DNA from: Bacteroidales bacterium
Lineage (GTDB): Bacteria; Bacteroidota; Bacteroidia; Bacteroidales; FEN-979
NCBI GenBank assembly: GCA_963682005.1
Contig: OY820914.1
Span: 4,964,979 to 5,028,978, forward strand
DNA length: 64,000 bases
Direction of reading: 5' to 3'
Position 1 is the first letter of the stretch, and each line of letters begins with the position of its first letter. The notes under the pieces are model-generated. The model was not told where the DNA came from. It made no database searches and saw only the letters and a list, made by a program, of their open reading frames with translations. A program made the translations under genes and the position numbers. Below are positions 7,588 through 37,084 of this stretch, piece by piece.

Positions 7588-8074
7588 AGGGGCAATATGG
7601 GATTATCTCGAGACCTCCGGAGTACTTGAAAATGGCACAGATGAAGAGATAAAAGCGGCAAAAAAGGCATACAGAAAAGGATACTATCTAAGCTATAAAA
7701 GAAACCAACGTGCCAACAAGCCAGAGTTTATTATCAATTTTTCATCAGAGAATGGGGAGTATAGCAAGGTAAAGATGGCCGCAAAACATCATAAGATGAC
7801 CGTGACGGCCTTTATTCGATCATCAGTACTGGCATACCTGCAACAACGATTTCTCGTCCCTAATGCATTCCAAGTAGCCCATTTAGAGGAAACCCTCTCT
7901 CAATGTTTAAATGAAATACAAAAACTCGTCGGAGCTAAAGAAAAGTACTATTGGTCAAGAGAAGAAAAGTTTGAAGCAATTGAAAAAAGGATTGAAAAAC
8001 TTGAATATGACATAGATCAAGTATTTCGAAACCCTCCATTACTCCATCATGATAATCAAAATCAAATCCTTTAA
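7565..8074 (+). CDS. relaxosome accessory protein (RHH / MobA-MobC-like)
   Basis: Start taken at MKRTRKHKG. Contains a MTVTAFIRSSVLAYL ribbon-helix-helix-like segment. Overlaps the T4CP and relaxase genes. Confidence 0.55.
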   Translation: MKRTRKHKGAIWDYLETSGVLENGTDEEIKAAKKAYRKGYYLSYKRNQRANKPEFIINFSSENGEYSKVKMAAKHHKMTVTAFIRSSVLAYLQQRFLVPNAFQVAHLEETLSQCLNEIQKLVGAKEKYYWSREEKFEAIEKRIEKLEYDIDQVFRNPPLLHHDNQNQIL

Positions 8075-9926: not shown

Positions 9927-12518
9927 TTATCCAGATTTGCATTTAGTAATAAAATCATCAAGTAATTTAAGTTCCGCCTCAAGCTTAGAATTTTTTGGTA
10001 CCGCTGGGTTTATCCCAGCTGCCATATCATGAAGCCAGTTTGAAGACTCAGTCATTCCATCATTTACGTCTTTAATTAAGGTTGGGTTTATATCAAGACT
10101 GTCTAATCTTTGAGTTTGCACACTTTTATTAAATCTTTGAACAACTCCTTTTAATAAACGCTCTTCAACAGCTCGTTCCCAAGCTTCTCTAAGGTATTCA
10201 TACCACCCTTTAACTTCTTTTCTGTATAGATCACGGTCGCCAGTCTCAAGCTTCTTTATTCTAACCAAATCGTTTCTTAAATAACCAACTCTGCTTTTTA
10301 CATTCAAAGCAAACCAAGGGAGTTCTTTTTTTGTTACGCCAATCCGGTCACCATTCTTGCTCATTGATAACGAAATTTGCTCAACGGATTGAGCTTTGGC
10401 ATAATTTTGTAATTCTAATAGAAAAACGATATCGTGGGTTAGAACGATAACTTGGCGTTCCCTTGCCTCTTTTACGAGTCTTTTTGCAATAGTACTTCTT
10501 CTTTCGTGATCAAGAGATGTGACAGGATCATCAAAAACAATTCCAGAATTATTTCTGTCCAATTTTGATTCTGTCAGGAAATCTGCCAAGGCACTAACAG
10601 TCTGTTCTCCTTCACTCAAAATATCGCTTGGATCATATCCTCGCGCAAATTCCAACTTAAGCCCTTTGACAGTAGTGGCATCCCGGCCATGAGACTCAAC
10701 TTTGAGTCCAAAATTGCAATCAAGTTCTTCCGTCTCTTTGTTAAAAATTTCGACATACCGTGATATTACCAGTTCACCCATAATTTCTGTCTTCTTTCTG
10801 GTAGTATTACCTCTTGCTGTTGCTAGATTTATGGGTACTACAGCATTTTCCCAACGCAACCATGCAATATGTTTTTTTATTTTAGAAAGTATTCTTGACG
10901 CCTGTAGTTTTTGTTCGAGACAAGTTATCTCCCCATTTAGAGACTTTATTTCAGGGGTAGGATCAACTAGCCCAGCTTCAGTTTTCTTTTTTAATTCAAT
11001 AAGTTTGTCTATCGGCTTTAAGTTTATCCCTGGATCAGAATAGCTAACTTTTTGCTCCTTCCCGACCATATCTATCCAGTTCAAAAGTTGAGTATTTAGA
11101 TCATGAAATCCTTTTATAATCTTTTCTAAATCTGTCGCAATATCTTTTTTAAGAATTTTTATGGCAATTTCAGTCTCTGAAAAGGCTGGCCAAGTCTTAT
11201 TTATTCGTTGCAGGTCTTCCACTGATGCTCTAAGTTCCTGCCTTGCTTTCGCCAGTTCGGTCTCTGCCGTACTCTTTAAAAAATCCCAGTAATTACTAAA
11301 TAATGTTTTTTCCTTCTCTTTAAGAGATTGCCTGCAAAGAAGACAATGTTCAGGCTTAACCCCAGAATTAGAAGCAGTTTCTTTTTCGTAGAGTTTTTGA
11401 GCTGCTATGATTAATGACTTCCATTCCGGACTGCCAATATTTTTAAAAGAAGCAAAATCAAAATTTTTAACGCTTAACTTATCGGCTATTTTAATTTTAT
11501 CTTGAATCTCCTTTACCAAATTATTGATCGTTTTGGCTTTTATTCCGCTCAGACATAAGCTTTTGGTAATGAGAGTCTTTTTAAATGTATCAAGATCGTT
11601 ACATTCATCAGTCAATTCCTTTTTTTGTTTTGGTACATCCTGCTTTAGTTTTTTTGCAACTAACCTTTTTTTCTCTTCAAGTACTGTTTTGTCGACCGGT
11701 GTAAATTTTAGAGCATTATCAATTTCCTTATCTGTAGTTTTATGAGACAACGAATCTAAGAATTCGGTGACAACAGATGTGCCTGTATAGAGACCTTCTA
11801 CCGGATTATCCTGCTGCCTTGCTTCTATTTCCTCAGTCAGTTTTGCCTCGATATTTACTATGCTCTTGAATACCTCATCAAAGATTTTTATCCTTGAAGG
11901 GACAAATTCAACTTTATTCTCACTATTTAGGTGGATCAAAGCACTTTCGTGATCGAAAACAGAAAAAGATTTAAGAGCCTCATGGGTCTGGCCTAGAATA
12001 TAGTTAATAATATGTGAACCTGAGTCATCGGATACATGAAAATCAGCTGTCGCCTTTTTCGCCCGATCAGAAGTGTTTCTTGCGTTTGGTAACAATTTTC
12101 TAGGTTTTCTTGAAAGACAAGCATTACTTAGAAGTCTTCCTATGCCTGATTTGCCTGTTCCATTGTCTCCGTAAATTATTGTCAAATTTTTACCAAACTC
12201 AAGAAAACAACCCTCGTCGACAGCATTTACATCTTTTAAGTTTTCAATTTTATCAAGTGAAATTTTTGCCTTTTGAGTATCGGCCCCATTTAAATCAAGA
12301 GTAGGAAAAACAATCTTAACTCTACCTGGTCCAACTTTTATCACGCCAGAATCTTCCAAGAGATACTTATAACATTTCAAAATATCTTCATCATCAAGAA
12401 TCTCTTTTGTCATGTGCAATTGCCACAAGTACTGTTCCCAATAAGGCTTGCTTTCCAGCCACATTTTAAGACTATCAACTTTTAGCCTTTTCATTTTTTT
12501 TCCAATTTCTTCACTCAT
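9927..12518 (-). CDS. AAA_13 / RloC-PrrC-like ABC-type ATPase with coiled-coil CxxC zinc hook and a C-terminal putative nuclease region
   Basis: Walker A GDNGTGKSG, CLLC hook (11334-11345) inside a long coiled coil, D-loop/H-loop VFDDPVTSLD..LTHD. C-terminal LREAWE...NWLHD resembles the PrrC R-x3-E...H arrangement. Start taken at the ATG at 12518. Confidence 0.6.
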   Translation of the reverse strand: MSEEIGKKMKRLKVDSLKMWLESKPYWEQYLWQLHMTKEILDDEDILKCYKYLLEDSGVIKVGPGRVKIVFPTLDLNGADTQKAKISLDKIENLKDVNAVDEGCFLEFGKNLTIIYGDNGTGKSGIGRLLSNACLSRKPRKLLPNARNTSDRAKKATADFHVSDDSGSHIINYILGQTHEALKSFSVFDHESALIHLNSENKVEFVPSRIKIFDEVFKSIVNIEAKLTEEIEARQQDNPVEGLYTGTSVVTEFLDSLSHKTTDKEIDNALKFTPVDKTVLEEKKRLVAKKLKQDVPKQKKELTDECNDLDTFKKTLITKSLCLSGIKAKTINNLVKEIQDKIKIADKLSVKNFDFASFKNIGSPEWKSLIIAAQKLYEKETASNSGVKPEHCLLCRQSLKEKEKTLFSNYWDFLKSTAETELAKARQELRASVEDLQRINKTWPAFSETEIAIKILKKDIATDLEKIIKGFHDLNTQLLNWIDMVGKEQKVSYSDPGINLKPIDKLIELKKKTEAGLVDPTPEIKSLNGEITCLEQKLQASRILSKIKKHIAWLRWENAVVPINLATARGNTTRKKTEIMGELVISRYVEIFNKETEELDCNFGLKVESHGRDATTVKGLKLEFARGYDPSDILSEGEQTVSALADFLTESKLDRNNSGIVFDDPVTSLDHERRSTIAKRLVKEARERQVIVLTHDIVFLLELQNYAKAQSVEQISLSMSKNGDRIGVTKKELPWFALNVKSRVGYLRNDLVRIKKLETGDRDLYRKEVKGWYEYLREAWERAVEERLLKGVVQRFNKSVQTQRLDSLDINPTLIKDVNDGMTESSNWLHDMAAGINPAVPKNSKLEAELKLLDDFITKCKSG

Positions 12519-12538
12519 AAAACTAACTTTAGAATAGA

Positions 12539-14239
12539 CTATGCCACGGCCCAAGTAGTTACGTTTTGATGAACAAGTTGTTGCCACTGTAATTCACCCT
12601 GTGAGGTTTGATTTGATTGCCATTGGTTTTCAAGCCAAGTCTTTAACAGACTTGAATTAGAAAAGTTATTTTCAACACCTACCTGTACAAACTCAATGAA
12701 TTTCTCCAAGGACAAAGGGATAATCCGAGTAGCACCACCATAAAGGTCAGTATAATTTTTATTAAGATTATAAAAGAAAGCCAACGTTCCTTGTGAAATA
12801 TTAGGAGCAATAAAAATACAATATGTATCTCTATTTACTAGGCGTTTAAAGTTTCCATAATGCCTCGGAACAGAATCTCCTTCCATTTTAAATTGAGTTT
12901 CTCCAGAGGAAAGGGTAACTTCACCCATGATAGCAAAATCATCAAATTCAATTTCTAAATCAGGTTTATTGCCCGGTGCAGTATTCAAAGGCATTCCATC
13001 CAAATCCATAATAAAATTACCATCTATGCGTCTAGCGTAATTTAGCATTACAAACGAGCGCCAAGTATTCCATTCAAGGAATAAAGATGGATCAGGAGCA
13101 TCCTTATCAATAATACTCTGGAATACATCAAGTATATCCTGAAATTCTTTGCGACTGCGTAATTCGATCTTTTTTTCCTCTATATTCTTCTTCTGGGTGG
13201 TTATCTTAAGATCATCAAAAATGTTCTTTAATTCTTCAATCCCCAAATCCAATTCTCCAGGTCCAAATTTCTTCAATCCTTCAATTTTGTGAATTAACAT
13301 AGTCTTGTCATCTGAAAGGAGGGGAATAGAATAAGGATTAAACATATATTCCTTGAATTCGCTCAAGGTTTTATATTCTGTAGGTTCTCTATTAATATTA
13401 GAAAGGATAAATTGAACCTCTTCAGTTTTATACGGTGAAATAATCAACCTTAAAGTTTTTTTCTCAAATGTAACTAATTCAGTGGCACGCACATATCTAA
13501 TAATTGCGTCAGCATAATCTTTCATATTTGACTTCTTCGTTCTGATAAATTCCTTCAAGGACGAATCTTCACTTTCCCTTGTAGCTGTATCACCTCGCTC
13601 AATTTCATTACCATAGATTTCTAGAATTTCTCTTTCAAAAACCTCATGTACATACATTTTTCTACTTCCAGGATACGATCTGCTACCTTCCCTAAAAGCT
13701 ATAATTTTTTTAATGATCACGTCATATTTGGAAATATTTACCAATTGCAAAAAGAAAATAGCTAATTCAGTCTTTGAAAGACTACCGAGATCGAGTATCA
13801 ACCTAATCAATTCCAGGTAAGGTTTAACAAAAAAGTTAGTGGTTCTTGATTGTAAATGATATGGAGATGGAAGCTGAAACTTTAACAATTGACGAGTGAA
13901 CGTTTCATCTATACGTTTCTCCGTTAGCAATAATTTTCCAGCAGAGGTGAGATTTATTACCGGTTTCAAGTCAATAAAACCTAACGCTTGTGGGGCTCTC
14001 GTAATTCTATCTCGAGCTGCAAAAGCAGGATCAGATGGGTAATTCTCACCTTCATAAAAAGAAGAGTGAAATAACTGATCAAAAAATTCAGCCTGTAATT
14101 CCTGATTTCCAGACCATACCTTGCCTTCAAAACTTGAACACAACAATCCAATCTCTGGAATGATTTTACTTATTGTCCTTGGAGAAGTAAAACCGAAAAT
14201 AGTTTTTGATTTACTTAGATTAGCCATATTTATTCCCAA
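12539..14239 (-). CDS. AlwI/PleI/MlyI/N.BstNBI-family type IIS restriction endonuclease
   Basis: SPRTISKIIPEIGLL..FEGKVW..RDRITRAPQALGFI at the N-terminus and PDLEIEFDDFAIMGEVTLSSGETQFKMEGDSVPRHY..RIIPLSLEKF at the C-terminus match my memory of this family. Confidence 0.8.
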   Translation of the reverse strand: MGINMANLSKSKTIFGFTSPRTISKIIPEIGLLCSSFEGKVWSGNQELQAEFFDQLFHSSFYEGENYPSDPAFAARDRITRAPQALGFIDLKPVINLTSAGKLLLTEKRIDETFTRQLLKFQLPSPYHLQSRTTNFFVKPYLELIRLILDLGSLSKTELAIFFLQLVNISKYDVIIKKIIAFREGSRSYPGSRKMYVHEVFEREILEIYGNEIERGDTATRESEDSSLKEFIRTKKSNMKDYADAIIRYVRATELVTFEKKTLRLIISPYKTEEVQFILSNINREPTEYKTLSEFKEYMFNPYSIPLLSDDKTMLIHKIEGLKKFGPGELDLGIEELKNIFDDLKITTQKKNIEEKKIELRSRKEFQDILDVFQSIIDKDAPDPSLFLEWNTWRSFVMLNYARRIDGNFIMDLDGMPLNTAPGNKPDLEIEFDDFAIMGEVTLSSGETQFKMEGDSVPRHYGNFKRLVNRDTYCIFIAPNISQGTLAFFYNLNKNYTDLYGGATRIIPLSLEKFIEFVQVGVENNFSNSSLLKTWLENQWQSNQTSQGELQWQQLVHQNVTTWAVA

Positions 14240-15042
14240 AATTTATTTTCATCAACGGATGCAGATTTAGGTTGCAGAATATCCTTACCAGTTAATTTGT
14301 ATTCTACTATTCGTTTTTTTGAAATTTCAAGTGCTTTTTCCGATATATCACATCCAACAAAGGTGCATTTGTTTTTTAGGGCTGCTATCGCTGAGGAAGC
14401 ACTACCTAAGAATGGATCGCAAACAGTAAAATTCTTATCTCCACTTGCAAATATCATTGCTTGGAATACTTCAACTGGTTTTTGCGTTGGATACTTGCTC
14501 GCGTGTATTCTTTTGAACCTCCAAACGTCAGGAAAGGTCCTATTTCGTATATGACGGTTATTACCATTAGTAGCAAAGATAATATATTCATGCCGTCGTC
14601 TAAAGTAATGCCCCATCCCAATATTCACCTTATCCCAAGTAATTAAATTTTTTACATCAAAGTACTCTCTTACTAGATGACCAAGGCTAAGCATGGAAAA
14701 TGAATCAAACATGATATAGATGTGTCCTGTCGAGGGTTTAAGGACCCGTTTACATTGTGTTAAAAACAATCTATAGTTCTCAGCCGAATCTTCAAACTCA
14801 CCAAACCATTTTCCGTTCTCCTTGCCTTTGTCTGAATATTGACCAACTATTCTACCTTTACCAAGCATAAGTTTATTGTTCATTCCAGAATAAGCTGGAT
14901 CAGTGACAATAATGTCTACACTTTGATCTGGTAATTTGCTTAGAAACGAGATCGCATCATCTCTAAATATCTTAACAGAGTTATCAGAGGATGAATAATA
15001 TAAGGTTTTTTTTGGGCGTACTTTTGGGCTACTCTTAGTCAT
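14230..15042 (-). CDS. beta-class N6A/N4C DNA methyltransferase
   Basis: Motif IV-like TDPAYSG lies N-terminal to motif I CDPFLGSASS; 10-nt overlap with the endonuclease gene. Confidence 0.85.
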   Translation of the reverse strand: MTKSSPKVRPKKTLYYSSSDNSVKIFRDDAISFLSKLPDQSVDIIVTDPAYSGMNNKLMLGKGRIVGQYSDKGKENGKWFGEFEDSAENYRLFLTQCKRVLKPSTGHIYIMFDSFSMLSLGHLVREYFDVKNLITWDKVNIGMGHYFRRRHEYIIFATNGNNRHIRNRTFPDVWRFKRIHASKYPTQKPVEVFQAMIFASGDKNFTVCDPFLGSASSAIAALKNKCTFVGCDISEKALEISKKRIVEYKLTGKDILQPKSASVDENKFWE

Positions 15043-15400
15043 AAAAATTTCTAATTCAACAATATATCAATGCTCGTAATAAATTCATTTGTATTCATTG
15101 TACACGATTCAAGCGTATTTTCAAGCTCCTTCGAACAAAGGTAAAAAAAAGGACTTCTGCAACGGCCTTTTATCTTATTTAAGGACCAACAAAGGATCGT
15201 TAACGAAATCAAAACTGAGTTAGATTTACAAGAAGAAACAACAATTCAAATAGAAGCGAAGAGGAACAAGATTGCCAAAATTATTGAAAAAGCAATAAAA
15301 GCGTTAGCCATCCATAGGAGATTAATGATGATTTTTGGGCTTGTTATTTTACATATTATGTATATTTACATGAGTTATTCATACCCAAATTTATTATCCC

Positions 15401-16288
15401 ATGAAAAAGCCAGCTTCTGAACCTAAATCAAAAGCTCAAAATCTAAGCTTTAACGTTTTGAATATTCGTCTTCATTCAAACTCAAGAACGGGCCCCAATG
15501 CTTATTTTGAAATTTTTGAAAAAATTGCTGATTCAAGAACAGTTGTGCAAGTTTCGATTGATAGATTTATAATCTTAAGGACAAAGTTTGTCACAGAAAT
15601 TTCAGGACAAAAGATTATTTATGGTAAAATTGCCGGATTCACAAAAATTTCAGAAACCAATTGGCTAAATATTAATAATTTAGAGGTGGAATCAGTCGTA
15701 ATTCCCGCTGATCATTTTCCTAATATTCGTGAAACAGACTATATATTCATTCCGGCTGCACATAGAATTGCTATTGTTAAATCTCCCCAATTCGGACTCT
15801 ACAATGCAATTAAATTCTTGAACGAATCATTACTAAAAGTAATTGGTAGTGATGAACAAATAGACGTTATTATTGAGCAAAGTTCTGATATTTTCAAGGA
15901 AATTATGGAGGCTCCAATTATCAGGAGTCTTGACATTGAAATATCCTATAGTAATGCTGATATTAAACATGGTGAATATTATAAATGGCTTGATGATGAA
16001 TTAAGGGAAGCCGAAGTCGGAAATATTAAGCTCTCAATCCGGCCAGATCAAAATAATGAAATAAAAATTGATAACAGCCAACTTATCAAGGGCGCATTAA
16101 GCGTTGCGCAAAGTAATGGTTCTGTGTCAGCTACTATTATTACACCTGAGAGAAAGAGAAAAAAAATAATTACAAAGTTTCACCCTGAGATATTTCGGAG
16201 AAAGATAGATCATCCCGATGAAAAAAATCCAAGTATTTTTGCAATGATAATGGAACGGTTTAGAAATAAGTCACATGAAGGAAACTGA
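15401..16288 (+). CDS. hypothetical soluble protein (295 aa), first gene of an unassigned two-gene cassette
   Basis: ORF; no catalytic motif recognised. N-terminal FNVLNIRLHSNS..YFEIFEKI pattern only vaguely reminiscent of a DUF family. Confidence 0.6.
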   Translation: MKKPASEPKSKAQNLSFNVLNIRLHSNSRTGPNAYFEIFEKIADSRTVVQVSIDRFIILRTKFVTEISGQKIIYGKIAGFTKISETNWLNINNLEVESVVIPADHFPNIRETDYIFIPAAHRIAIVKSPQFGLYNAIKFLNESLLKVIGSDEQIDVIIEQSSDIFKEIMEAPIIRSLDIEISYSNADIKHGEYYKWLDDELREAEVGNIKLSIRPDQNNEIKIDNSQLIKGALSVAQSNGSVSATIITPERKRKKIITKFHPEIFRRKIDHPDEKNPSIFAMIMERFRNKSHEGN

Positions 16289-17939: not shown

Positions 17940-18428
17940 CTAAAGTAACCCTTCGTCAGCAAAAGTAAAATAAGCACCGCTTGATGCGATGATTAAATGA
18001 TCGAGAACTTTTATATCCAAAAGACTCCCAGCTTCTTTCATTCTCTTTGTCAATGTTATATCCGATTCACTAGGTTGAATATTCTGTGAGGGATGATTAT
18101 GACAAAGTATCAAATTACTTGCATTTGTCTGAAGCGCAAGCATAAAAACGATTTTTACATCGACAACGGTTCCACTTGTACCTCCTGAACTTAGTCTAAA
18201 CCAGCCCAGGATGTTGTTAGCCCTATTGAGAAGGAGCAAATAAAACTCTTCCTTAAGCTCAATGGTGTTTATATCAAAAAGGGGATAGAGAGCATTAAAT
18301 GCATCTCTGGAATTCAAAATCTTCGTTTTGTTGCTCGATTTTGTTTTATAACTCACAAAAATTTCGGCAAGCCCGGGACTTTTTTCACTTGTGCTTGCCT
18401 CAATGACATTTTTCATATTCCTGTTCAT
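17940..18428 (-). CDS. radC: RadC-like JAB/MPN domain protein
   Basis: JAMM motif HNHPSQNIQPSESD; start taken at MNRNMKN (the upstream ORF extension has no ATG). Confidence 0.8.
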   Translation of the reverse strand: MNRNMKNVIEASTSEKSPGLAEIFVSYKTKSSNKTKILNSRDAFNALYPLFDINTIELKEEFYLLLLNRANNILGWFRLSSGGTSGTVVDVKIVFMLALQTNASNLILCHNHPSQNIQPSESDITLTKRMKEAGSLLDIKVLDHLIIASSGAYFTFADEGLL

Positions 18429-18557
18429 ACTTTCTTTTTTAAAATGATTACTTTTTTCTATTCGGTTTTCAAAAACCAGTTCTGTCGAGGAGTATAGCGA
18501 CTGATAATTAAAAATCAAGATTGACAAAAAAACATGGAAATGTGGAATAAAATCAGA

Positions 18558-18573
18558 GTATTGTGCGACATGG
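18558..18573 (-). repeat. left copy of the TGTCGCAYAAT motif (inverted relative to the two right copies)
   Basis: GTATTGTGCGACATGG; its reverse complement CCATGTCGCACAATAC matches 19842-19854 and 19932-19945. Confidence 0.6.
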
Positions 18574-18812
18574 GGGTATTGACATTGTGGATAACTTGGT
18601 ATATACTCTTCTCATTACAATTTAATAACAGAGTCGTTGTCCCTTTAATGGGACTCTCCTTAACCGGAGCGGAACGAAACAACGGTGTCTGTGTTTAAAA
18701 GCATTCTTACTGGCATTTTAAAGTATTCGTGTTAAGATTGCTTTTGGAGGTTTTATTTAGAAACTTCCAAAAGCCATTTTATACCATTTACCGGTAAATA
18801 ATGTGCTTACAC

Positions 18813-18842
18813 AAGACCCGCAGGTTCGTTCCGGCGGGTCTT
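18813..18842 (+). promoter_or_regulatory. 9-bp perfect hairpin ending 7 nt before the recombinase ATG
   Basis: AAGACCCGC (18813-18821) / GCGGGTCTT (18834-18842) with a 12-nt loop. Confidence 0.45.
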
Positions 18843-18849
18843 ATGTATT

Positions 18850-19728
18850 ATGAAAGAAAAAATAAAAAAGTATTTAGAGTGGAAGGGGACTTATGCCCCA
18901 CGTGCCAGTGAAAATTATAAGATCTGGTTGGATAGATTTATTGAAATATGCGGTGACAAGCCCATACAAAAATATCAGATCGGGGACTACGTGAAATATC
19001 AGAGTTGGATAGAATCTCATTTTAGCTCATATTGCGTGCAATATTCGACTGTCATTATCAAAAACTTCTTCAAATTCTACCGTGATCAGAATATTAAATG
19101 TATGTCGCCATCGTTTATAAAAATTCCTCGTGCTCACAGGAATTCACACCGGGCTATTAATGAGGAAGAGTATAGAAAAACAATATCAGGAATACCAAGT
19201 AATAACTTTCGCTCATTGCGGGACCTTTTAATAATCCGTTTTCTTTGGGATACCGGTGTGCGTGTCTCGGAACTTTGCGATCTAAACATCTCTCAGATAA
19301 ATGAGAACAGTAGCTCTTGTGCTATCTATACTAAAAAGAACGGAAACCCGCGTATTATTGTTTGGTCCGAAGAAACACACAGGTATCTGATAAAATACCT
19401 TTCCATTCGCCTTGAATTGGACAAGGTACATCATTCCTCCGCTCTTTTTCCCGGCTTAGGTATAGATCATTGTTGGAAAGGAAGGATAACATCCCGAAGT
19501 GTACAGAGAATTATAAAAATAAATGTCAGTAACGCAGGCATAAAAGAAAAAATCACCCCTCACAGTTTTCGTCATGGATGGGCACATATGCGAAGGGACC
19601 AAAACGCACCCCTGGCCTTCATTCAGAGGGGACTAGGGCACGTCAGCCCAACATCGACCTTTATTTATGAGCAGTATAACGATAATGAATTTGTAAAAAA
19701 TGCCAATGTCTATTTTAGCCCAGCTTAG
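18850..19728 (+). CDS. small tyrosine recombinase (XerC/D-like, 292 aa)
   Basis: DTGVRVSEL (Arg), HSFRHGWA (HxxR), LGHVSPTSTFIY (His/Tyr). Confidence 0.85.
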   Translation: MKEKIKKYLEWKGTYAPRASENYKIWLDRFIEICGDKPIQKYQIGDYVKYQSWIESHFSSYCVQYSTVIIKNFFKFYRDQNIKCMSPSFIKIPRAHRNSHRAINEEEYRKTISGIPSNNFRSLRDLLIIRFLWDTGVRVSELCDLNISQINENSSSCAIYTKKNGNPRIIVWSEETHRYLIKYLSIRLELDKVHHSSALFPGLGIDHCWKGRITSRSVQRIIKINVSNAGIKEKITPHSFRHGWAHMRRDQNAPLAFIQRGLGHVSPTSTFIYEQYNDNEFVKNANVYFSPA

Positions 19729-19841
19729 TGGTTTTCCACTTGCAACCGTAAATTGTCTATGCTACGCTTTTATGAGTGTTTTTTCGTTCGTTAACAACAA
19801 AGCAGAAAGTGGTGAGCAGCTTCACTTTATAGAAAACACCT

Positions 19842-19854
19842 CATGTCGCATAAT
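19842..19854 (+). repeat. right copy 1 of the TGTCGCAYAAT motif
   Basis: CATGTCGCATAAT, 114 nt after the recombinase stop. Confidence 0.6.
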
Positions 19855-19931
19855 GTTTGTTGGAAAGACAGGGAAGGGTATGTTAAAACGGCCTTAATTC
19901 ACAAGATTTTATCTTGTGCTTGAAGTATTTA

Positions 19932-19945
19932 GTGTCGCACAATAT
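19932..19945 (+). repeat. right copy 2 of the TGTCGCAYAAT motif
   Basis: GTGTCGCACAATAT. Confidence 0.6.
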
Positions 19946-20034
19946 ATCCTGTAAGGAACTCACAATTTTACCTTGTAAAACAAGGATATTTTCTCAATCA
20001 ACAAACAACATTTTCTTAATCTAAGCAACTTGTA

Positions 20035-20227
20035 CACAGTGGTCTGTGGAATTGCCAGGTCATTTTGAATTGATATTCAATCTACCGGCAAAATCAGTCT
20101 TGCCCTAGACAAGGGCCTTTCAACCTCTCTCGAAACGGAACGAACAGGACTGAAAAGAGAATTTCTGAATGGTACAAACATAGAAGTACCAGGGATTCCA
20201 TAGACCGCTGCGTGTAGGTTTACGCAG
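20035..20227 (+). other. candidate structured RNA / leader upstream of the 67-aa ORF and rep-like gene
   Basis: Long-range helix 20035-20052 / 20195-20214 (15 of 16 positions pair, 2 of them G-U on the plus strand) encloses hairpins at 20065-20080 and 20170-20191. An alternative hairpin at 20208-20227 overlaps the right arm. Confidence 0.3.
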
Positions 20228-20264: not shown

Positions 20265-20468
20265 ATGAGACTATTTGATATATGCACCAGAAAGTTTTAT
20301 GAAAAAGAAGGTGAGAAAAAAGTGAAGTGGTATCGGGCAGGCATAATGAAAGAAACGGATCAGGGAACGAGATTCCTTCGTCTTTTTCACCAGCCGGAAA
20401 CCGACTTTTTCGTTTATGAAAAGGTGGAGCCGGAGAAAAAAGAGGAAGATAGGGTAATAAAATATTAA
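20265..20468 (+). CDS. hypothetical protein (67 aa)
   Basis: ORF only; 18 nt upstream of the rep-like gene start. Confidence 0.35.
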   Translation: MRLFDICTRKFYEKEGEKKVKWYRAGIMKETDQGTRFLRLFHQPETDFFVYEKVEPEKKEEDRVIKY

Positions 20469-20553: not shown

Positions 20554-20621
20554 GTAAGCCTTCGGCCACGAGCATCTTGTGTAGTTGATCGATCCTGACC
20601 AACTTGCTGCCAAAAACTTTT

Positions 20622-20903
20622 ATGACTCTTCATGATAAGCGTTCACAGATGATCACGATGGTTGATCTGTGGCAGCAAAGTGGTCTTAGCCAGGCAGAAT
20701 TTTCCCGGGCACAGAATGTCAAACTAGCGACCTTACGTTATTGGATCCATAAGCACCGACATGGCGATACAACCGGCTCAGGGTTTATACAACTGACCGG
20801 GATAACATCACCGGGCATCAGTATTCGTTATCCCAACGGTGTTGAACTGCTTCTACCCGTTCAGGCGCCGGCCGGGTATATAAAAATGCTGATCAGCCTT
20901 TAG
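20622..20903 (+). CDS. tnpA: IS66 accessory protein TnpA (orf1)
   Basis: HTH-like LSQAEFSRAQNVKLATLRYWI; first gene of the IS66 triad. Confidence 0.75.
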   Translation: MTLHDKRSQMITMVDLWQQSGLSQAEFSRAQNVKLATLRYWIHKHRHGDTTGSGFIQLTGITSPGISIRYPNGVELLLPVQAPAGYIKMLISL

Positions 20904-20908
20904 GTCGG

Positions 20909-21277
20909 ATGTTTTCCCTTGGCGCTGCCCGATATTACCTGTACCGGGAACCAACCGATATCCGCAGGAGTTTTGACGGTCTGTGCGGTCTGGTCACAGA
21001 ACGGTTGGGTCAGAATCCCATGAGCGGGGATGTGTTCATCTTCATCAACAAGCCACGTAACCGGATGAAATTGCTCAAATGGGAACCGGGAGGGTTCGTG
21101 CTGTTCTATAAGCGACTTGAACGAGGCACCTTTGAAATTCCCAGTACATCTTTTCAAGGGCTTTCCCATCAGATCGGCTATGGGGAACTGACCATGATGG
21201 TCACTGGTATATCAATGAAATATACAAAAAAAAGAAGGCGTTTTTTGTCACAAAATGATGTTGATAAATATCGCTGA
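20909..21277 (+). CDS. tnpB: IS66 accessory protein TnpB (orf2)
   Basis: YLYREPTDIRRSFDGLCGLV..DVFIFINKPRNRMKLLKWE matches the IS66 Orf2 signature. Confidence 0.85.
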   Translation: MFSLGAARYYLYREPTDIRRSFDGLCGLVTERLGQNPMSGDVFIFINKPRNRMKLLKWEPGGFVLFYKRLERGTFEIPSTSFQGLSHQIGYGELTMMVTGISMKYTKKRRRFLSQNDVDKYR

Positions 21278-21318
21278 AATAGTGATTTAGCAAGAGTTTT
21301 TCATGATAAATTTGAATC

Positions 21319-22779
21319 ATGGAAAGCACAGAAATGGTCACCATCAGTAAAGCAGATTTTGAGGCTCTCAAATCAGAAAATGCCTGGCTCAAACATCAGC
21401 TTTCCGAACTGAAACGTCTGATCTACGGAGCCAAAAGTGAGCGTTTCATTGCCGTCAATCCGGATCAGGCTACCTTGTTCGATCTCCCAGCAGAACAACC
21501 ATCAGAAACGCCCACAGAAGAAATCACCTATACACGCAACAAACCACAACAGGAGAAAAAGCAGCCACTTCGTCTGGAACTGCCTGCTCACCTGGAACGT
21601 CGGGAAGAAATAATCGAGCCGGAAAACCTTCCTGCCAATGCAAAGAAGATTGGTGAAACTGTTACCGAAATTTTGGAATATGAACCGGCCAGCGCTTATG
21701 TTCGTCGCATTGTCCGTCGCAAGTACATTGTGGAGCAGACCGATGAAGAGACCCGCATCGTCATTGCACCGTTACCTACCTTGCCAATACCCAAAGGCAA
21801 TGCCGGAGCCAGCATGATCGCCCATCTTCTGGTGAGCAAATTTGTCGATCATCTTCCGTTCTACCGCCAGGTCCAGATGTTCAAACGCCAGAGGCTCGAA
21901 ATCGCCGAATCGACCATTAACGGTTGGTTCAATGGAGGGTGTGATTTGATAGAGCCGCTATACCAGGCACTGAAGTCAAGAATGTTGGCATCTGATTATC
22001 TCATGGCCGATGAAACCCCGATCCCAGTGCAGACCAAGGACAAGCCCGGGGCCACACACAAAGGTTTTCACTGGGTCTATTACGATCCCGGCAACAAATT
22101 GGTGCTGTTCGATTACCGGAAAACCCGGGGGAAAGAAGGACCCGATGAACTGCTGAAGAACTACGCCGGGTATCTGCAAACCGATGGCTATACTGCCTAC
22201 AACCACCTTGAAAACACAAACAACATCACTCTTCTGGCCTGTATGGCGCATGCCCGGCGCAAGTTCGAGCATGCACAGGAGAATAATCCCACGCTAGCCG
22301 CCCAGGCATTGAAAATGTTCCAGGCCTTGTATGACATTGAACAGGACATCCGGGAAAAAGAACTGGGACCCGACGTCACCCAAATACTGCGTCAGGAAAA
22401 ATCAAAACCTACTCTCGATCGGATGGAAGCCTGGCTTAAGGAACAGATTATTGTCGTACCCCCAAAAAGCGCTATCGGAGTGGCCATTGCATACACGCTC
22501 AATCTCTGGCCTCGGCTGACCCGGTATATCGATGACGGACGCTTCCACATCGACAATAACCTAATCGAAAACAGCATCCGGCCGGTGGCGCTTGGACGCA
22601 AGAACTACCTCTTTGCCGGTTCCCATGAAGCCGCCCAACAAGCAGCTGTGATCTACTCCATCCTGGCTACATGCAAGCTACACCAGGTGGAACCCTTCGC
22701 CTATCTCACCAAAATCTTGTCCATCATCCCCGACTTCCCGGCCAATCAACTGCACACACTTCTGCCAGGGCAAAAATAG
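21319..22779 (+). CDS. tnpC: IS66-family DDE transposase TnpC
   Basis: N-terminal leucine-zipper-like region and YLMADETPIPV, YLQTDGYTAY, NNLIENSIRPVALGRKNYLFAGS motifs. Confidence 0.9.
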   Translation: MESTEMVTISKADFEALKSENAWLKHQLSELKRLIYGAKSERFIAVNPDQATLFDLPAEQPSETPTEEITYTRNKPQQEKKQPLRLELPAHLERREEIIEPENLPANAKKIGETVTEILEYEPASAYVRRIVRRKYIVEQTDEETRIVIAPLPTLPIPKGNAGASMIAHLLVSKFVDHLPFYRQVQMFKRQRLEIAESTINGWFNGGCDLIEPLYQALKSRMLASDYLMADETPIPVQTKDKPGATHKGFHWVYYDPGNKLVLFDYRKTRGKEGPDELLKNYAGYLQTDGYTAYNHLENTNNITLLACMAHARRKFEHAQENNPTLAAQALKMFQALYDIEQDIREKELGPDVTQILRQEKSKPTLDRMEAWLKEQIIVVPPKSAIGVAIAYTLNLWPRLTRYIDDGRFHIDNNLIENSIRPVALGRKNYLFAGSHEAAQQAAVIYSILATCKLHQVEPFAYLTKILSIIPDFPANQLHTLLPGQK

Positions 22780-22832
22780 CAATCATATCTCGTTGGAAAA
22801 AGATGCTCGTGGCCGAAGGGTTACTCTTAATC

Positions 22833-23230
22833 TAGCAGAGCTTAAGGTTCTTCTCGTTGTCATCCGACAAACTCTTGGCTGGGCTGACAGGCGTGGAATG
22901 TATGGAAGAAAAGAAACTGATTGGATTTCTGGTAGCCAACTAAGAGAAAAAACCGGAAGCTCTGAACGAGCTATCACTTCGGCGATAGAAACACTGGTAA
23001 TGAAAAGATTAATCGAAGTTCATGATGATAGGGGACACAAACTTTTATATTCAAAGAATAGACAAGGGAAGATCCGCCTGTATTACAGTCTGCACCCTTC
23101 TGTTTTTAATACTGTGGATAACTCCCTGAAAAGCCCTCTAACTTCTGCAAATTTTGCGGAGGACTTCCGCAAAAATTACGGAACACTTCTGCAAAAAATG
23201 CGGATAACAAAAGAAACTCTACAAAACTAA
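22833..23230 (+). pseudogene. 3' fragment of the rep-like winged-helix gene
   Basis: Continues the 20487 reading frame. The ATG of the tracked 22793 ORF lies just upstream of, and its first codons run through, the IS66 right IR, so it is chimeric. Confidence 0.8.
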
Positions 23231-24408: not shown

Positions 24409-27400
24409 TTATTTCTTCTTGTTAGTTCCAGAACTAATAATACTCATTGGTGCTTCTACCGTCCAGCCAATTTTGCTTAATCCATATTGTTGGGCAGCGT
24501 ATGTACCAAGGTTTAATGTACTGCCAGCAAAGCTACCAACCCATGAACCAAATCCCGAACCCAATATTGAACCAGCAACTTTTACTGGATTTACACTATG
24601 ATCCCCAGTAGCTACTTGTGTAGATAAATTAGTTGCACCAGCTATTCCCATAGCGAATTTTATGCTTATATCTGGTCCTGTCATTGCTCCACCAGCATAA
24701 CTAAGACCTACAATTTTAGCATAATCACCAAACGAAGTTTGTTTATTTTGCATTTGATCTTCCAATATCTGACTACCAACATTGAATGTTGTATTTATTG
24801 TTCCTCTAACTACGGCTTGTGAATTAAATAATGTGTTAGCTACTGTACTTGCAACACTGCTCCCTGCAATCATAGCTCCACCTACTGCAGTTGCTCCACC
24901 AACCACTCCAATGGCTGCTCCCGTGGCATATGGGTGATCCATAGCCATCTGCCAACCACCTCCCATATATTGGGCCGCTTGTCCAACTTCTCCTGAAAAA
25001 TTATTCCATGATTGTGTACCAGACAAGTATTCTCCAAACCATTTTCCACTCGGATCACTTAGTATAATCGGATTGTTTCTGGCATAACTATAACTATTTA
25101 ACTGTTGTGGATCATTTAAAAATTTATCTGGATTCCAGAACACCGGATCCTCTGAAATAAACCTCCCAGCCGTGCTTTGATGATAACGGGCGTTTAGATA
25201 GTTTAAGGAAGTGTCTGGGTCATAATGTTGACCGATGTATTGTTTCTGATTCGTGTGGCTCCCAGAGGAGATTCTTTGTGAACCAAAGGGGTAGTAATCG
25301 AGTAATTCTACTTGTCCTCCATTTGAATCTGAAACGACATTGGTTGAACCAAGATGGTCTGGGTGGATATAGTATGGAGTAACGACAGAATTAGCTGTTT
25401 CAATGGTTGACACTAATTGATTACCCGCATATATGTTCTTGGTCTTTTTGGATCCTCCATAGTTGTAATACTGATTTGGATATTCTGTTGTCAGAGTGCC
25501 ATTACTAGATAATACCCTATTACCTTGTTCGTCGTAAAGGTACTCTCGAGTAAATGTTCCGTTAGTGGTTTCAGTCAGTTGATTTTTGTAATTCCAGGTG
25601 TTGGTGAGGGTACCGTCGTCAGTATTGTTACCATTGTGATCGTAGGTGTTTGTGACACTGTTAATTGAAGTGGCAGCGTGGGGGTTAGCGTAGTTGGTGC
25701 CACTGTTTCCTGCGTAAGTATAACTTCCCACTGGACCTGAAGTGATATTTCCAATTGCGTTGTAGGTAAAATTTTGAGTGTAAGGAGTCTGACCAAATGG
25801 CACATCGGTGATAGTGGCAGAAGTCAGACGATTTAGATCGTCATAGGTATAATCGGCTGTCTTGGATCCGCTTGTGCTTGAATCATCCACGATTTCAGTA
25901 ATGTTGCCATCAGCATCATACTCGTATGTGGTCTTTTGAAGACTTGTTGGTACTTGGTTGGTCGTTGATTTGTCAGTTACTCTGTATAAATTATTTGGGT
26001 CGTATGTATTCGTAGTCGTTACTCTATTGGCATAATTTATTTCTGTTGGTTGGTCAGTCGGCGCATAATCAAAATTCGAAATAACATCGGTGAAAGATCC
26101 TCCGCTTTCTTTATATTCTATTTTTTCCAGTAACCCAGCCGAATTGTAAACATAAAGAACTTGAGCATTGTCGGGATAAGTAATTACTAGCATATTACTC
26201 TGGCGATCATGAGTGTATGAAGTGGTGTAAATATTTTTGGTGACAGTTTTTTCCTCACTTGCGACATTCCCATCTGCGTCATATGTGTAATCCGTTTCCA
26301 CTCCACTTAGCATAACCGCGGAACATAGTTTTCCTATACCGTCTGAACATGAATCATAAGTATAGATAATATCTGTGCCAGTTGTTCCTGTAGAATCTTC
26401 AGTTAGTTTTCTGTTTACATCATCATAGGTATAGTCCACCGTATCGCCGTTAGGATTTATGCTTTCCGTCAAATTACCTGAATCATCATAGGTATATGCC
26501 CATGTTCCATAAGTTGCATCATTTTGCGCATGAAGATCTTCAGCCGTTAAACGATGTCCCAAATTATCATAGGTAAAATTCCGGACATTGCCAAGCGCGT
26601 CAGTTGTATTTATTAGATTGCCATTTAGATTCCAAGTGTAGTACGTGGAGTAAGTATAAGAGCCAGTTCTTTCGTCAACTCTCACCAAATTTTTATACGC
26701 ATCGTAGTAATAATTTTTGACTTTTCCACGTGGGTCACTCACGTCAATTTCCCATGGAGTGTAAGAATAAGCGGTAACACCTGACGCGTTGGTCAATGTA
26801 TGAATACGCTGCACGGGATCATAGGCGTATGTCGTATATAATGCTGTGGTTGTAGTTGGAGAAGTCTTGGATGATCCACTCCCTGTATATGGTAAAGATT
26901 CTTTTTGTACCAAACCAAGATTATTGTAAACAGTGTCTTTGACATTAAAGTTGCCAGAAGTTTCTGCCTCTTTTCTCTCTTGAATTAAACGTCCAAGCCC
27001 ATCAAAATATTGATAAGTATTAGCTGTGGTTGAAGAATTAAGATAGTTAACTTTTTGTACAGAGACTGCATTTGAAGTATCTGTATAGACATAAGCAGTT
27101 TTAGCGTCCAAAGTTGAAGGTGATGTTAGATCAGGAATTTTTTCGGTTAGCACTCGTCCAAGCCCATCGTAAGTTGTCTCTTTCGTTAACCCATTTGGAT
27201 CAGTAGTATCTATCACTTTGCCAGTTGAATAGTCATAGGTATATTCTGTGCTATTTGAAAGGGGATCGGTTATTGTGGTTGGGTAAAGGTGATATGTATC
27301 GTAAGAATAGGATGTTGTTTTTCCTCGTTCGTCAGTGGAAGTAATGGGAATACCATAGGTTGTATAGTATGATTTTTGAGTATTAACATTACGTGTCACA

Positions 27401-30400
27401 GAAGCCATTTTTTCAATTTCAGTTGGATTCCCTGCGCCGGTGGTACCAAATGTAAGTTCGTCATAATACGTTCTTGTATCCTGAATTGTTGTCGCGTTTT
27501 GGTCTTGGATAATATCATCGGAGAGTAAACCGATAACATTTTCACCGTCAGAGGCGTAAGAGAAAGACTCCGTTAACATATCATTCCCTGTGTCGGCAAA
27601 TGATCCATCACTACTTCCCGTTACTTCTCCCCAATCAATTTTTTGAGTTAAATTGCCATTAGTATCGTCATAGGTATATTCTTGTGCCGTGTCTTTGTGG
27701 TTATTAGTGCCATCGTAGGTAAGTGTAGTGGTGCGAGTAAGTTTTACAAAATCATGTCCTGTACCAATGTTGTATGAATCCCATTTATTTATTATGTCAG
27801 CATACAAATTATCAGCACCGTCATATTGTTCGACACGATATGGTTTTCCAATTTTTGCGTACGAATCGCTGTATTCACCTAGCGAAGAATTTGTACCATC
27901 TCCTTGATGAAAATATGTTTTTTTTACGTTTCCAACATCATCTGTCACAGAAGTTGAAGCAAAACCTGCAAACTTGCGAGTAAGATAATCATCAAAATAA
28001 TATTTACCTCCTTGGTAAGAATAATTATTAGTTTCCGAATTTCCTAAACCATCATTATTGGTGATCTGAGAAACAACATCTATGGACATAGGTAAATTTG
28101 GATTTAGGAGGTTACTCGATCCATCTTTGAATAACTGTGTTGCTTTGTAAGTTATTTGAGTATTACCACCTTCGGGATATGTAATTTGAGTCAAGTTATT
28201 CACTCTGGAATTTGTCGTATTATTCAAATACACGTAATGTAATCCATCACTGCCTGCTCTAACCAGGTCCACTAAATTATCTCCATTAACATCAATTAAC
28301 TGGAGGCCATGATTTTGATAGTTACTTTGGATAAAAAACTCTTTGTTTCCAGATGAATCTACCTTGTCCGGCATCGTCCAAGTGGAAGAAACATCTGTCC
28401 ATCCAGAACCATTGTTTAAGTAAATTTTAGGAGCATTGATGGAACATGGGACAGCAGTAGGATAAGCAAAATCATTGGCACACACGAAATCAGGTAATCC
28501 ATCGCCATTGATATCTGTCATTCTTACGCCATAATCTCTGTTTGGGGGACCAACCACAAATTGCATCGGAACAGATGCCGACCAAGTAGAATCATAAGTC
28601 CAACCAGAACCGTTGTTTAAATACACATAATGCAATTCGTCATTGCCAGCTCGTACAAGATCAGCTAAATTATCTCCATTGACATCGATTAACTGGAGAC
28701 CATAAACTTGATAATTGCTGATTACAAAATATTCTTTGTTCCCAGATGAATCTATCTTGTCCGGCATCGTCCAAGTGGAAGAAACATCTGTCCATCCAGA
28801 ACCATTGTTTAAGTAAATTTTGGGATCGTTAATATGACATTGAGAAGGAGCACCACCAGTTGGAATATTATTCGCACAAACGAAATCAGGTAGTCCATCC
28901 CCGTTGATGTCTGCCGTTCTAACTCCCTGATCTCTGAAATTGCTACCTGTAAGCAGGAATTGCATTGGAACAGCCGAAGACCATGTGGAATTATAAGTCC
29001 AACCAGAACCGTTGTTTAAATACACATAATGCAATCCATCATTACCGGCTCGTACGAGGTCAGTCAAATTATCTCCATTGACATCGATTAATTCAAGACC
29101 TTGGTTTTGATAGGAACTATTTATAAAATATTCCTTATTCCCCGATGAATCAACTTTGTCCGGCATCGTCCAGGTAGAAGAAACATCCGTCCAGCCAGAG
29201 CCAGTATTTAAATAAATTTTGGGAGCATTGATGGAACATGGGACAGCAGCAGGATAAGCAAAATTATTGGCACATATGAAATCAGGCAGTCCATCTCCGT
29301 TGATGTCTGCCGTTCTTGTACCATAATCCTTGGTGGGAATACCAAGTAAAAACTGCAACGGAACAGCCAAGGACCAGGTGGAGTCATAAGTCCAGTTTGC
29401 CGTTGACGTTTTATAATCAAAATCTGTAGCGGGAAGAACAGTAACATTGTTTGACCCATCCTGACCTGATTCAATTATCGTCTCCAAAAGAGAACCGGTG
29501 CCATTGTCGGCTGTGGTATAAGTAAAATCATATTTTTCTGCCCAGACACTATTTATTTTGGTATTGATTTCACTAATTACATAATTTGATTTAACCGAAA
29601 ACCCAGTAGAATAGGAAATTGGACCGCCTGTTCGACTAGCGGTCGTAAAATTAACTTCAAAAATTCCATCAGTAGTTCCATTCCCGGTATAAACTATTTG
29701 TAATGGATATATCTGACCTGCGTCTTTGTAGTAGGTATAAGAAATATAATTATCGTTAGTATCTCTCACCTCTTCCAGCATCCATTTATAAATATGAGAC
29801 GAATTATTTGGATCATCTTGCCTGGCTTGGGCATTGGCTCCAAAAATATATTGAGTGCCGTCTTTACTTGTAACTACCCAACCACTTCCTGATTTTTCGT
29901 ATTTAATAAAATCACCCAATTCATCCTTGGCTCTGTAATTTGTGGAATCAAGGGCAATTAATTCTCCTGAAAGAGATGAAGAATAATAGTCTTCGGAGAA
30001 AAGCTCTTGGCTTCCTGTTTTATTAATTCTCTCTATACTCGGAATATCTATTGACCAACCAGATCCGATAACTGAATCCAAAACAGAATTGGAACTATTG
30101 TACATTAAAGTTACATCGGGAGTCATTTTATTTCTTCCTGGTGGCACGTTAATGGAATATTTATAAATCATGGCACCAGTAGAATTATCAACATCAGTGG
30201 TAAGACGAGCTTTTTTAGTAGTATTACTATTTAAAATTGGATTTTCTTCAAAATCTTCAGTCAAGGTTTCTAGGTTTTGTTCAATTTGAGGTCCTGATTG
30301 AATATTTGTTTCACCATTATTAACAACTTGGTTGCCTTGATCTATGGTTTCTTCTTCCGCAAATACTTTGACTATAGGATAAATTATAATAAAAAAAGCC

Positions 30401-36833: not shown

Positions 36834-36835
36834 CG

Positions 36836-37005: not shown

Positions 37006-37011
37006 CTTTTG

Positions 37012-37084
37012 AGCGAAAGACGGGATTCGGACCCGCGACCCTAACCTTGGCAAGGTTATGCTCTACCAGCTGAGCTACTTTCGC
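37012..37084 (-). tRNA. tRNA-Gly(GCC)
   Basis: Reverse complement GCGAAAGTAGCTCAGCTGGTAGAGCATAACCTTGCCAAGGTTAGGGTCGCGGGTCCGAATCCCGTCTTTCGCT; anticodon loop TTGCCAA. Confidence 0.95.

Follow-up and report, generated by a model that had tools for sequence, protein, structure and literature searches.

The 64,000-nucleotide stretch of a Bacteroidales genome analysed here (assembly GCA_963682005.1, contig OY820914.1, positions 4,964,979 to 5,028,978; referred to as the window, in whose own numbering all coordinates are given) contains an island resembling an integrative and conjugative element (ICE), and within this island a gene for a small Xer-like tyrosine recombinase of 292 aa (18850-19728, plus strand) which is followed by a dif-like dyad site. 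The short motif TGTCGCAYAAT, which recurs around the gene, can be read as one arm of this site, and the site itself as the predicted core site of the recombinase. The role that we consider most likely, with about even confidence, would be the site-specific resolution of element multimers by the recombinase at the dif-like site.

The assignment of the protein comes from its catalytic domain, which matches PF00589 (Phage_integrase) over residues 112-279 with E=1.9e-25 and 90.1 bits against a cut-off of 27.1. Residues R138, K162, H238, R241, H264 and Y273 are invariant among 32 homologues of the recombinase, and the catalytic residues of XerD (R148, K172, H244, R247, H270 and Y279) have a spacing of 24/76/3/23/9 which equals that of the window recombinase. 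The catalytic hexad of tyrosine recombinases has been described as R-K-H-R-[H/W]-Y (PMC5357621). At the N-terminus, the SAM-like domain PF13495 scores 23.2 bits, below its cut-off of 27, and many of the homologues carry a precomputed match to the same domain. The nearest named relatives are XerA, XerD and XerC, yet the curated NCBIfam cut-offs for Xer proteins are all missed widely (XerA 151.8 against 220, XerD 120 against 329.6, XerC 105 against 335 and XerS 74.5 against 267), and it is for this reason that the protein is placed as an active-looking, Xer-like simple tyrosine recombinase of an apparently uncharacterised family. Models for integron integrases also remain below their cut-offs (56.7 bits against 265, and 26.4 against 435). 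More than 300 homologous proteins with 57-94% identity were found in public metagenomes, and the genome loci that carry the recombinase are nearly all metagenome-assembled genomes of Bacteroidota, with the addition of one contig of Minisyncoccia, a member of the candidate phyla radiation (CPR). In plasmid and phage databases, no relative of the recombinase above 28% identity was found.

Exact matches to TGTCGCAYAAT occur three times in the window, at 18560-18570 on the minus strand (copy A) and at 19844-19854 and 19933-19943 on the plus strand (copies B and C), and nowhere else. Shuffles that preserve dinucleotide composition contain on average 0.10 matches and none of 100 reached three, so the motif is a non-chance repeat. 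Copy A lies 279 nt upstream of the recombinase gene, and B and C lie 115 and 204 nt downstream. The original prediction, made from the letters of the window, had already placed three copies around the 292-aa gene, with coordinates that were off by only 1-3 nt, and had likened the motif to an arm of Xer/dif-type sites. Both claims hold up, the latter through the CGCA(T/C)AA core held in common with the XerC arm of dif and through a dyad with 10-bp arms and a 6-bp centre. Our comparison covered 34 genome and 80 metagenome loci plus several look-ups of exact proteins (about 115 related loci), in which homologous recombinases have 75 distinct sites downstream and, upstream, 19 inverted copies. Whether the motif is conserved beside such homologues, a check that had been proposed with the prediction, can be answered positively across 30-100% identity.

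The downstream copy forms the strong arm of a 26-bp dyad, TGTCGCA[C/A]AA-N6-TTnnnCGAnn, found across the related loci, most of which keep this copy as TGTCGCACAAT or TGTCGCAAAAG. Symmetry was scored as the number of reverse-complement matches between bases 1-10 and a second 10-mer, with spacers of 2-13 bp, and the 75 unique sites gave one sharp peak at a spacer of 6 bp (4.84 of 10, against 1.7-3.4 at the others). Sites with at least six of ten symmetric matches make up 41% at the 6-bp spacer and no more than 4% at any other. The right arm retains T17, T18 and C22-G23-A24, which mirror A9, A10 and T3-C4-G5 of the left. The left arm hardly varies among the same 75 sites and the right one is degenerate, with no compensating changes, which argues that the constraint is recognition of DNA by a protein, with a strong and a weak half-site, rather than the folding of an RNA hairpin. 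In distant relatives of the recombinase (30-43% identity) the dyad becomes near-perfect, as in L098 and L099, where it reads TGTCGCAAAA-GATACA-TTGTGCGACA. Sites of the dif type consist of 11-bp arms around a 6-bp centre (PMC5357621). The 10-6-10 dyad thus appears, on its letters, to have the classical anatomy of a core site for a simple tyrosine recombinase, in particular one of dif type, and its strong arm holds CGCAYAA in common with the XerC arm of the E. coli dif site.

Downstream of the gene the site occurs twice, each time preceded by a hairpin. The second unit (hairpin 19900-19918, site C 19933-19958, plus strand; TGTCGCACAA-TATATC-CTGTAAGGAA) contains the copy that is conserved throughout the family, 204 nt beyond the stop codon of the recombinase and some 310-330 nt ahead of the next gene, named c1 here. 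The first unit (hairpin 19806-19828, site B 19844-19870, plus strand; TGTCGCATAA-TGTTTGT-TGGAAAGACA) has an outer TGTC/GACA dyad with a 7-bp spacer, and is also kept in L036, L038 and L044. Tandem pairs of sites occur in L007, L048, L101, L105 and L110 as well. Across the loci the core site typically lies 120-210 bp past the stop codon, with an overall range of 86-2754 nt, and 91% of the 75 sites, against 60% of shuffles, are preceded by a hairpin which ends 14-19 nt before the site and whose stem has 5 bp or more. The sequence of this hairpin varies by lineage while its pairing is kept. An AAYAAGGAT box is conserved 3' of the site, and behind it stands a terminator-like hairpin with a T-run (19971-19995, plus strand), which has equivalents in most loci. 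The putative overlap regions at the centres of the copies differ (TACTCT in A, TGTTTG(T) in B and TATATC in C), and heterology of the overlap is known to block productive strand exchange by Cre, FLP, lambda Int and Xer. The heterologous overlaps would explain the stable coexistence of B and C as direct repeats 89 bp apart, and site B may be seen as a variant or accessory copy which would be unable to exchange with C as their overlap regions differ.

Three other readings of the conserved downstream site were discarded. An origin of transfer with its nic site was ruled out, since the site is a 6-bp-spaced dyad which lies 11 kb from the relaxase gene and is present in phage-like contexts that are free of any relaxase. 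A hot spot for insertions was ruled out because most insertions fall between the stop codon and the promoter-like element P2 ahead of the site, and P2 stays with the site. The seemingly inverted site of L012 occupies the canonical position and merely has its better arm on the right.

A separate question is to which protein the site belongs. Behind it follow c1 (20265-20468, plus strand; 67 aa, and 63-70 aa across loci) and c2 (22793-23230, plus strand), which encodes a winged-helix protein similar to replication initiator O (RepO; PF04492, PHROG 'replication initiation O-like'). The site holds a fixed spacing to P2 and c1, whereas its distance to the recombinase gene varies widely and insertions of 0.5-2.7 kb can part the two; taken alone, this constant spacing favours c1 or c2 as the partner. 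The dyad might then serve a purpose other than recombination, as an operator or iteron for the RepO-like c2 or for c1, or as an element working within the leader RNA that begins at P2. Initiators of the lambda-O type do bind dyad iterons, the site is flanked by the structure-conserved hairpin, the AAGGA box and the terminator-like hairpin, and close relatives that lack c1 and c2 mostly lack the site too. One phage contig moreover contains TAGTGTCGCACAATATATATGAG three times, in the manner of iterons, and has no recombinase of this family close by; the copies lie in a divergent intergenic region (6224-6332 in L130, equal to 22-130 in L161, which represents the same phage). We regard this account as rather improbable. 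The typical features of a tyrosine-recombinase site (10-6-10 geometry, a strong and a weak arm, a dif-like CGCAYAA core) argue against it, as does the complementarity of the arms, which is not maintained in the way an RNA hairpin would need, and copy A lies outside any predicted transcript.

The distribution of the site among loci is more telling, because three observations indicate that it goes with the recombinase rather than with c1 or c2. First, the unit of hairpin, spacer and site stands beside the recombinase in phage- or prophage-like contexts without c1 and c2 (L097-L102, L113 and the viral L199), in which the recombinase has 30-43% identity to that of the window. Second, the unit remains with the recombinase in L050, where a Fic gene takes the place of c1 and c2. 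Third, L225, the only locus found in which P2, site, RNA2 (the structured RNA ahead of c1), c1 and c2 occur without the recombinase, has its core changed from GTCGCA to GACGCA at an otherwise invariant base. The site is therefore predicted, with good support from these comparisons, to be the cognate core site that the recombinase binds. A scan of viral contigs with 15-mers gave 105 matches, which is about chance level by our own estimate, and a single genuine member of the family, L199.

Copy A is of another kind. It is a lone strong-arm half-site (TGTCGCACAAT, 18560-18570, minus strand) 8 nt upstream of the -35 box of P1, the promoter-like element of the recombinase gene, and it is predicted to be untranscribed, with the promoter-like elements of radC and of the recombinase pointing away from it on either side. 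It recurs at the same place and always in minus orientation in 19 loci (a strict pattern finds it in 12 of 64 unique loci). In the window a second arm is lacking (one of ten symmetric matches), and the flanks of the copy are AT-rich and unrelated among loci. The original prediction had treated A and B or C as possible partners in inversion, by which the 1.3-1.4-kb segment would flip and its outward-facing flanks would turn to radC or to the 67-aa and rep genes; as the segment carries P1, the recombinase gene and P2, this would redirect promoters to radC or to c1 and rep. A is inverted relative to B and C and all strong arms point to the gene, which invites this reading, as does the recurrence of that geometry in 19 loci, and after inversion P2 would be expected to read into radC. 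Exchange between A and C would leave the junctions CAGAGTATTGTGCGACACTAAATACTTCAAG and GTCAATACCCCCATGTCGCACAATATATCCTGTAAGG, and exchange between A and B the junction CAGAGTATTRTGCGACATGAGGTGTTTTCTATAAAG. However, c1 lies downstream on the plus strand in 73 of 73 loci and c2 in 56 of 56, and radC upstream on the minus strand in 39 of 39, so that the inverted arrangement is found in none (0/73, 0/56 and 0/39), including the five closest relatives (L035-L038 and L042). A flipped state present in at least 20% of copies would yield 0 of 19 with p of about 0.014. Most family members, moreover, lack copy A altogether.

With none of the assembled loci compared in the opposite orientation, only a single arm at A and spacers that differ between the copies, inversion of the segment is unsupported and we consider it highly improbable. 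The other behaviour that had been proposed, that of a discrete 1.3-1.4-kb cassette, fares no better, given the fixed order of neighbours, a copy A that is both single-armed and rare, and heterologous overlaps. Copy A, at about -54 to -44 of the promoter of the recombinase's own gene, would most simply be an autoregulatory site.

Taken together, these features lead to the following proposal. TGTCGCAYAAT would be the high-affinity arm of the recombinase's core site, which would consist of this strong arm, a 6-bp overlap and a weak arm. The gene and its site would belong to the replication and maintenance part of the element, made up of radC, recombinase, site, c1 and the RepO-like initiator, to which relatives add Dam and ArdC. 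Recombination between the single full sites of two copies of the element would resolve multimers of its excised, replicating circle, and the recombinase would not flip its own gene. The lone half-site A, which abuts the -35 box of P1, would bind the recombinase for autoregulation, and a pseudoknot in the leader at the start codon would control the expression of the recombinase. The conserved motif with its dyad, the unchanging gene order and the covariation in the RNAs are observed; what we infer from sequence comparison is binding of the site by the recombinase, multimer resolution, autoregulation through copy A and an effect of the pseudoknot on translation or termination. Resolution fits with neighbours of a replication type, namely the RepO-like gene and the DnaA-box-like sequences at P1 and P2, and it also fits with the observation that large plasmids have their own recombinase next to its site (PMC5357621). 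A circular, replicating form of the element is hinted at indirectly by the RepO-like gene, the DnaA-box-like sequences and the genes for a relaxase and a coupling protein.

An attachment role is the main rival, if a minor possibility. The recombinase could integrate and excise an element or exchange cassettes at the dyad, which in the window would be an unused or alternative attachment site (attP). In distant relatives the gene and the site are neighbours of lysis or early genes in DNA that resembles phages or prophages, host iscU/nifS genes stand within about 1-2 kb in L097 and L099 (candidate junctions, as is L012), and the DNA just past the overlap of site C is unusually divergent between relatives of 94-95% identity. 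We ranked resolution above this role because both the window and about 50 loci have an intact site within the element and because the island has its own integrase. The conserved element genes on both sides of the site in these loci indicate that it was not used for integration there, and the separate large integrase lies at the tRNA-Leu end of the island. Neither an empty target nor a second junction turned up, although no search aimed at them was made.

Several observations nonetheless weigh against multimer resolution or against the pairing of recombinase and site on which it depends, and some of them point towards attachment. In L012 (2651-3200, the Minisyncoccia contig) synteny stops right after the site and the ribosomal L27/L9 genes come next, although this contig may be an assembly chimera. 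In L067 (2940-3935) two direct full sites with different spacers enclose, like a cassette, 960 bp with two genes (93 and 123 aa). Compared with the window, the relatives L036 and L037 (94-95% identity) show a 1470-bp indel flush with the outer side of half-site A, with 3 bp shared at the junction, but the far end of the insert in L036 has no site-like sequence. The analogy to plasmid resolution is also left without a direct relative, since sequenced plasmids yielded nothing above 28% identity. Six close relatives have the recombinase gene and no detectable site within 2-4 kb, and no alignment column of the recombinase tracks the site subtypes CACAAT and AAAAG in six independent contrasts. Lastly, the site lies within a probable transcript, between a covarying hairpin and a terminator-like hairpin, so that a role at the RNA level or one coupled to transcription is possible.

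The 1470-bp segment (4288-5757 in L036 and 1205-2709 in L037) contains a 332-aa open reading frame, and the more distant L042 has the same neighbour. A further candidate junction, in L002, was rejected, since the two copies of a 170-bp promoter region can be aligned straight through the motif (78% identity) and there is no site-specific breakpoint. Between the diverged copies of the inter-promoter region of radC and the recombinase, this locus (2370-2460) carries a tRNA-Ser-like sequence and a gene of 352 aa, and its recombinase gene is frameshifted.

Besides the site, the locus encodes two RNAs which appear, by their conserved pairing, to be previously undescribed structured RNAs. RNA1 is the 240-nt leader of the recombinase gene (18613-18849, plus strand), between P1 and the ATG, with a minimum free energy of -83 kcal/mol (z=-7.9 against shuffles). 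A three-way junction at 18633-18686, with a closing stem GTCGTTG/CAACGGT and hairpins at 18640-18653 and 18656-18669, exposes a single-stranded 8-nt seed, GGAACGAA (18671-18678), which pairs with UUCGUUCC (18825-18832) in the loop of a hairpin at 18814-18841 that ends 8 nt before the recombinase ATG. In an alignment of 23 loci this helix is 100% paired, with compensatory double changes in five of its eight pairs (for example GAAGCAAA/UUUGCUUC and GAGACGAA/UUCGUCUC), and 72 of 91 loci show the pairing, formed by many variants of the seed. The minimum-energy fold of RNA1 shows an alternative extended pairing that would open the start-codon hairpin. At its predicted start lies a near-palindrome, ATTA(A/C)AAnTTTAAT (18614-18626), which is present in almost all loci and could be an operator.

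RNA2 (20037-20210, plus strand) lies upstream of c1 and comes last in the conserved order after P2, behind the hairpin-site unit or units, the AAYAAGGAT box and the terminator-like hairpin. It has an 18-bp outer stem (20037-20054/20193-20210) with conserved G.U pairs and an inner three-way junction (closing stem 20094-20102/20145-20153) that is paralogous to that of RNA1. Compensatory changes were found in 18 of its 26 pairs (RNAalifold, 41 loci). RNA2 bears the same seed as RNA1, GGAACGAA, at 20137-20144, and its seed covaries locus by locus with both the RNA1 seed and the loop complement, UUCGUUCC, which is present only once in the window. In L225 (3500-4010) the seed of RNA2 is intact though its sole known target is absent. 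Searches of Rfam 15 returned no match to either RNA at gathering thresholds, and at E up to 10 only chance matches to microRNAs and internal ribosome entry sites.

The shared seed allows for a speculative circuit, which we would regard as unlikely on present comparisons, in which the seeds of RNA1 and RNA2 would compete for the loop of the start-codon hairpin and so set the output of the recombinase. RNA2 would be part of the leader of the c1/RepO operon, which would begin at P2 and be transcribed through the site, and translation of the recombinase would follow, in trans, the transcription of the replication operon and hence copy number or the dimer state. If true, the circuit would represent a new class of riboregulator, acting on a tyrosine recombinase, and in the literature nothing specific was found on an RNA-associated or ICE-borne recombinase of such a kind. 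Guiding of the recombinase in the manner of bridge RNAs is unsupported, as complementary or identical stretches that either RNA has in common with the variable part of the site are no longer than those of permuted controls. A single-strand promoter similar to Frpo was also rejected, since P1 has no conserved complementary partner and a partial match at 18776-18811 is missing in most loci.

Transcription of these parts would start at two promoter-like elements. P1 (TTGACA-17-TATACT, 18579-18607, plus strand) matches the consensus at 11 of 12 positions, and its pattern is present in 64 of 69 unique loci at a median of 270 nt ahead of the ATG. A DnaA-box-like sequence, TGTGGATAA, lies in its spacer (18586-18594). 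DnaA-box-like TTATCCACA is found in or beside P1 and P2 in many loci, and for P1 such a sequence is seen in 16. P2 (TTGCAA-N14-TGCTACGCT, with an extended -10; 19740-19768, plus strand), whose conserved form across the loci is TTGCAT with an extended -10, is conserved in the downstream alignment, precedes the site and the c1 operon, and remains 90-260 nt upstream of the site even where insertions part it from the recombinase. Housekeeping promoters of Bacteroidota deviate from a consensus of the TTGACA/TATACT type, which makes the conservation of sigma-70-type elements here noteworthy. On the opposite strand, a site TTGATT-16-TATACT (18491-18518) found by a consensus scan would serve as the promoter of radC (17940-18428, minus strand; 162 aa, RadC-like JAB domain, PF04002 with E=3e-36), a gene which is also called in the identical contig L035.

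The order of neighbours across loci is radC on the minus strand, recombinase, about 0.5 kb of non-coding DNA, c1 and c2, often followed by two small genes, a Dam-type methylase and ArdC. The c1 family has no match in Pfam, NCBIfam or PHROG, and the AlphaFold2 (AF2) model of its product is all-beta (mean confidence score pLDDT 86) with no match in the PDB at E<1. In the window c1 is separated from the RepO-like gene by an IS66-family element (20604-22779, plus strand) with three open reading frames (orf1, TnpB_IS66 and DDE_Tnp_IS66), whose GC content of 0.43-0.51 stands out from flanks of about 0.36; in other loci c1 and c2 are adjacent. A Logan contig identical to the window ends at this insertion.

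The surrounding low-GC, ICE-like island spans positions 1-36920, and at its right end GC content rises from about 0.35 to about 0.44, with mutS beyond. It encodes a type IV coupling protein (T4CP, 6124-7587), a MobA/VirD2 relaxase (8049-8891) and ArdC (8906-9889), and ends with a 477-aa integrase (35266-36699) beside tRNA-Leu (36835-36920), to which tRNA-Gly (37011-37084) is close. The small recombinase would thus be an internal second recombinase of an ICE-like element. The GC skew shows no inflection at 19.9 kb. Cargo at 9927-16288, 24409-30471 and 31209-32809 resembles genes for defence or competition and includes an AAA_13/SMC-like ATPase, an AlwI-type endonuclease with an N6/N4 methylase, a DUF4747 protein, a 2020-aa RHS/YD-repeat protein (a toxin) with small open reading frames downstream, and a DUF6791-ThiF protein with a DUF6527 partner.

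What emerges is a widespread, uncharacterised family of Xer-like recombinases in uncultivated Bacteroidota and in mobile elements associated with CPR bacteria. The 26-bp target can be read from the sequence, which provides a ready pair of recombinase and site for experiments and possibly for the development of tools, and the pairing of seed and loop allows RNA control of a recombinase to be tested cleanly and directly. The presence of the same seed in RNA2 suggests that, on conjugative elements, replication genes and recombination influence one another. The tempting picture of a recombinase cassette that inverts itself has been removed.

Among known systems, the single-recombinase Xer modules (XerS/difSL of streptococci and lactococci, XerA/dif of archaea and XerH/difH) likewise have a small recombinase of the Xer clade adjoining a dyad site. 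They have arms of about 10-11 bp, a short centre (6 bp both here and in XerA/dif) and one arm that is better conserved (PMC5357621). Unlike them, the family described here scores below the curated cut-offs, has its site on a mobile island instead of the chromosome terminus and has members in phage-like DNA, and the extra hairpin, the AAGGA box and the RNA leaders are not described for Xer systems. Cre/loxP of P1, ResD/rfsF of F and the systems of large plasmids offer the closest parallel to the proposed role, as there too a recombinase gene adjoins a single internal site in the replication or maintenance region of a circularising element. The reaction proposed for the present recombinase would, as in these systems, delete the DNA between the direct repeats of a dimer. 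The present recombinase differs in having no relative above 28% identity on sequenced plasmids or phages and in residing on an ICE-like host with a second integrase, and resolution is here put forward by analogy.

Inversion switches such as FimB/FimE, the Rci shufflon and the invertible promoters of Bacteroides similarly place inverted copies of a short motif around a segment that bears promoters, but in our case one partner is a half-site, the spacers differ and no alternative orientation occurs in more than 100 loci. Integrons and the pdif modules of Acinetobacter, in both of which recombinase sites bound the cassettes, also have variable DNA abutting the sites, as in L036/L037 and L067, and tandem pairs of sites. 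In contrast to integrons, there is no integron-integrase signature, no folded site resembling attC and no array; the site is co-directional with and downstream of the gene, and most insertions, which fall after the stop codon and before P2, have no sites at their ends.

For the RNAs, the nearest analogy would be the repZ/repA genes of IncI-alpha and IncB plasmids, in which a pseudoknot controls rep translation together with the antisense RNA Inc. There as here, a loop pairs with a distant strand beside the start codon, and a second RNA has a sequence that could compete for the loop. The differences are that the presumed target gene is a recombinase and that the second RNA is not antisense but a paralogue of the leader, encoded on the sense strand 1.3 kb downstream. 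The bridge (seek) RNA of IS110 is likewise a structured non-coding RNA beside a recombinase with a strong promoter of the sigma-70 type, but it belongs to another class of recombinase, and the complementarity between site and RNA does not exceed permuted controls in the present locus. Against this background, the recombination module is akin to known ones, and it is in its RNA architecture that the locus is most novel and most readily tested.

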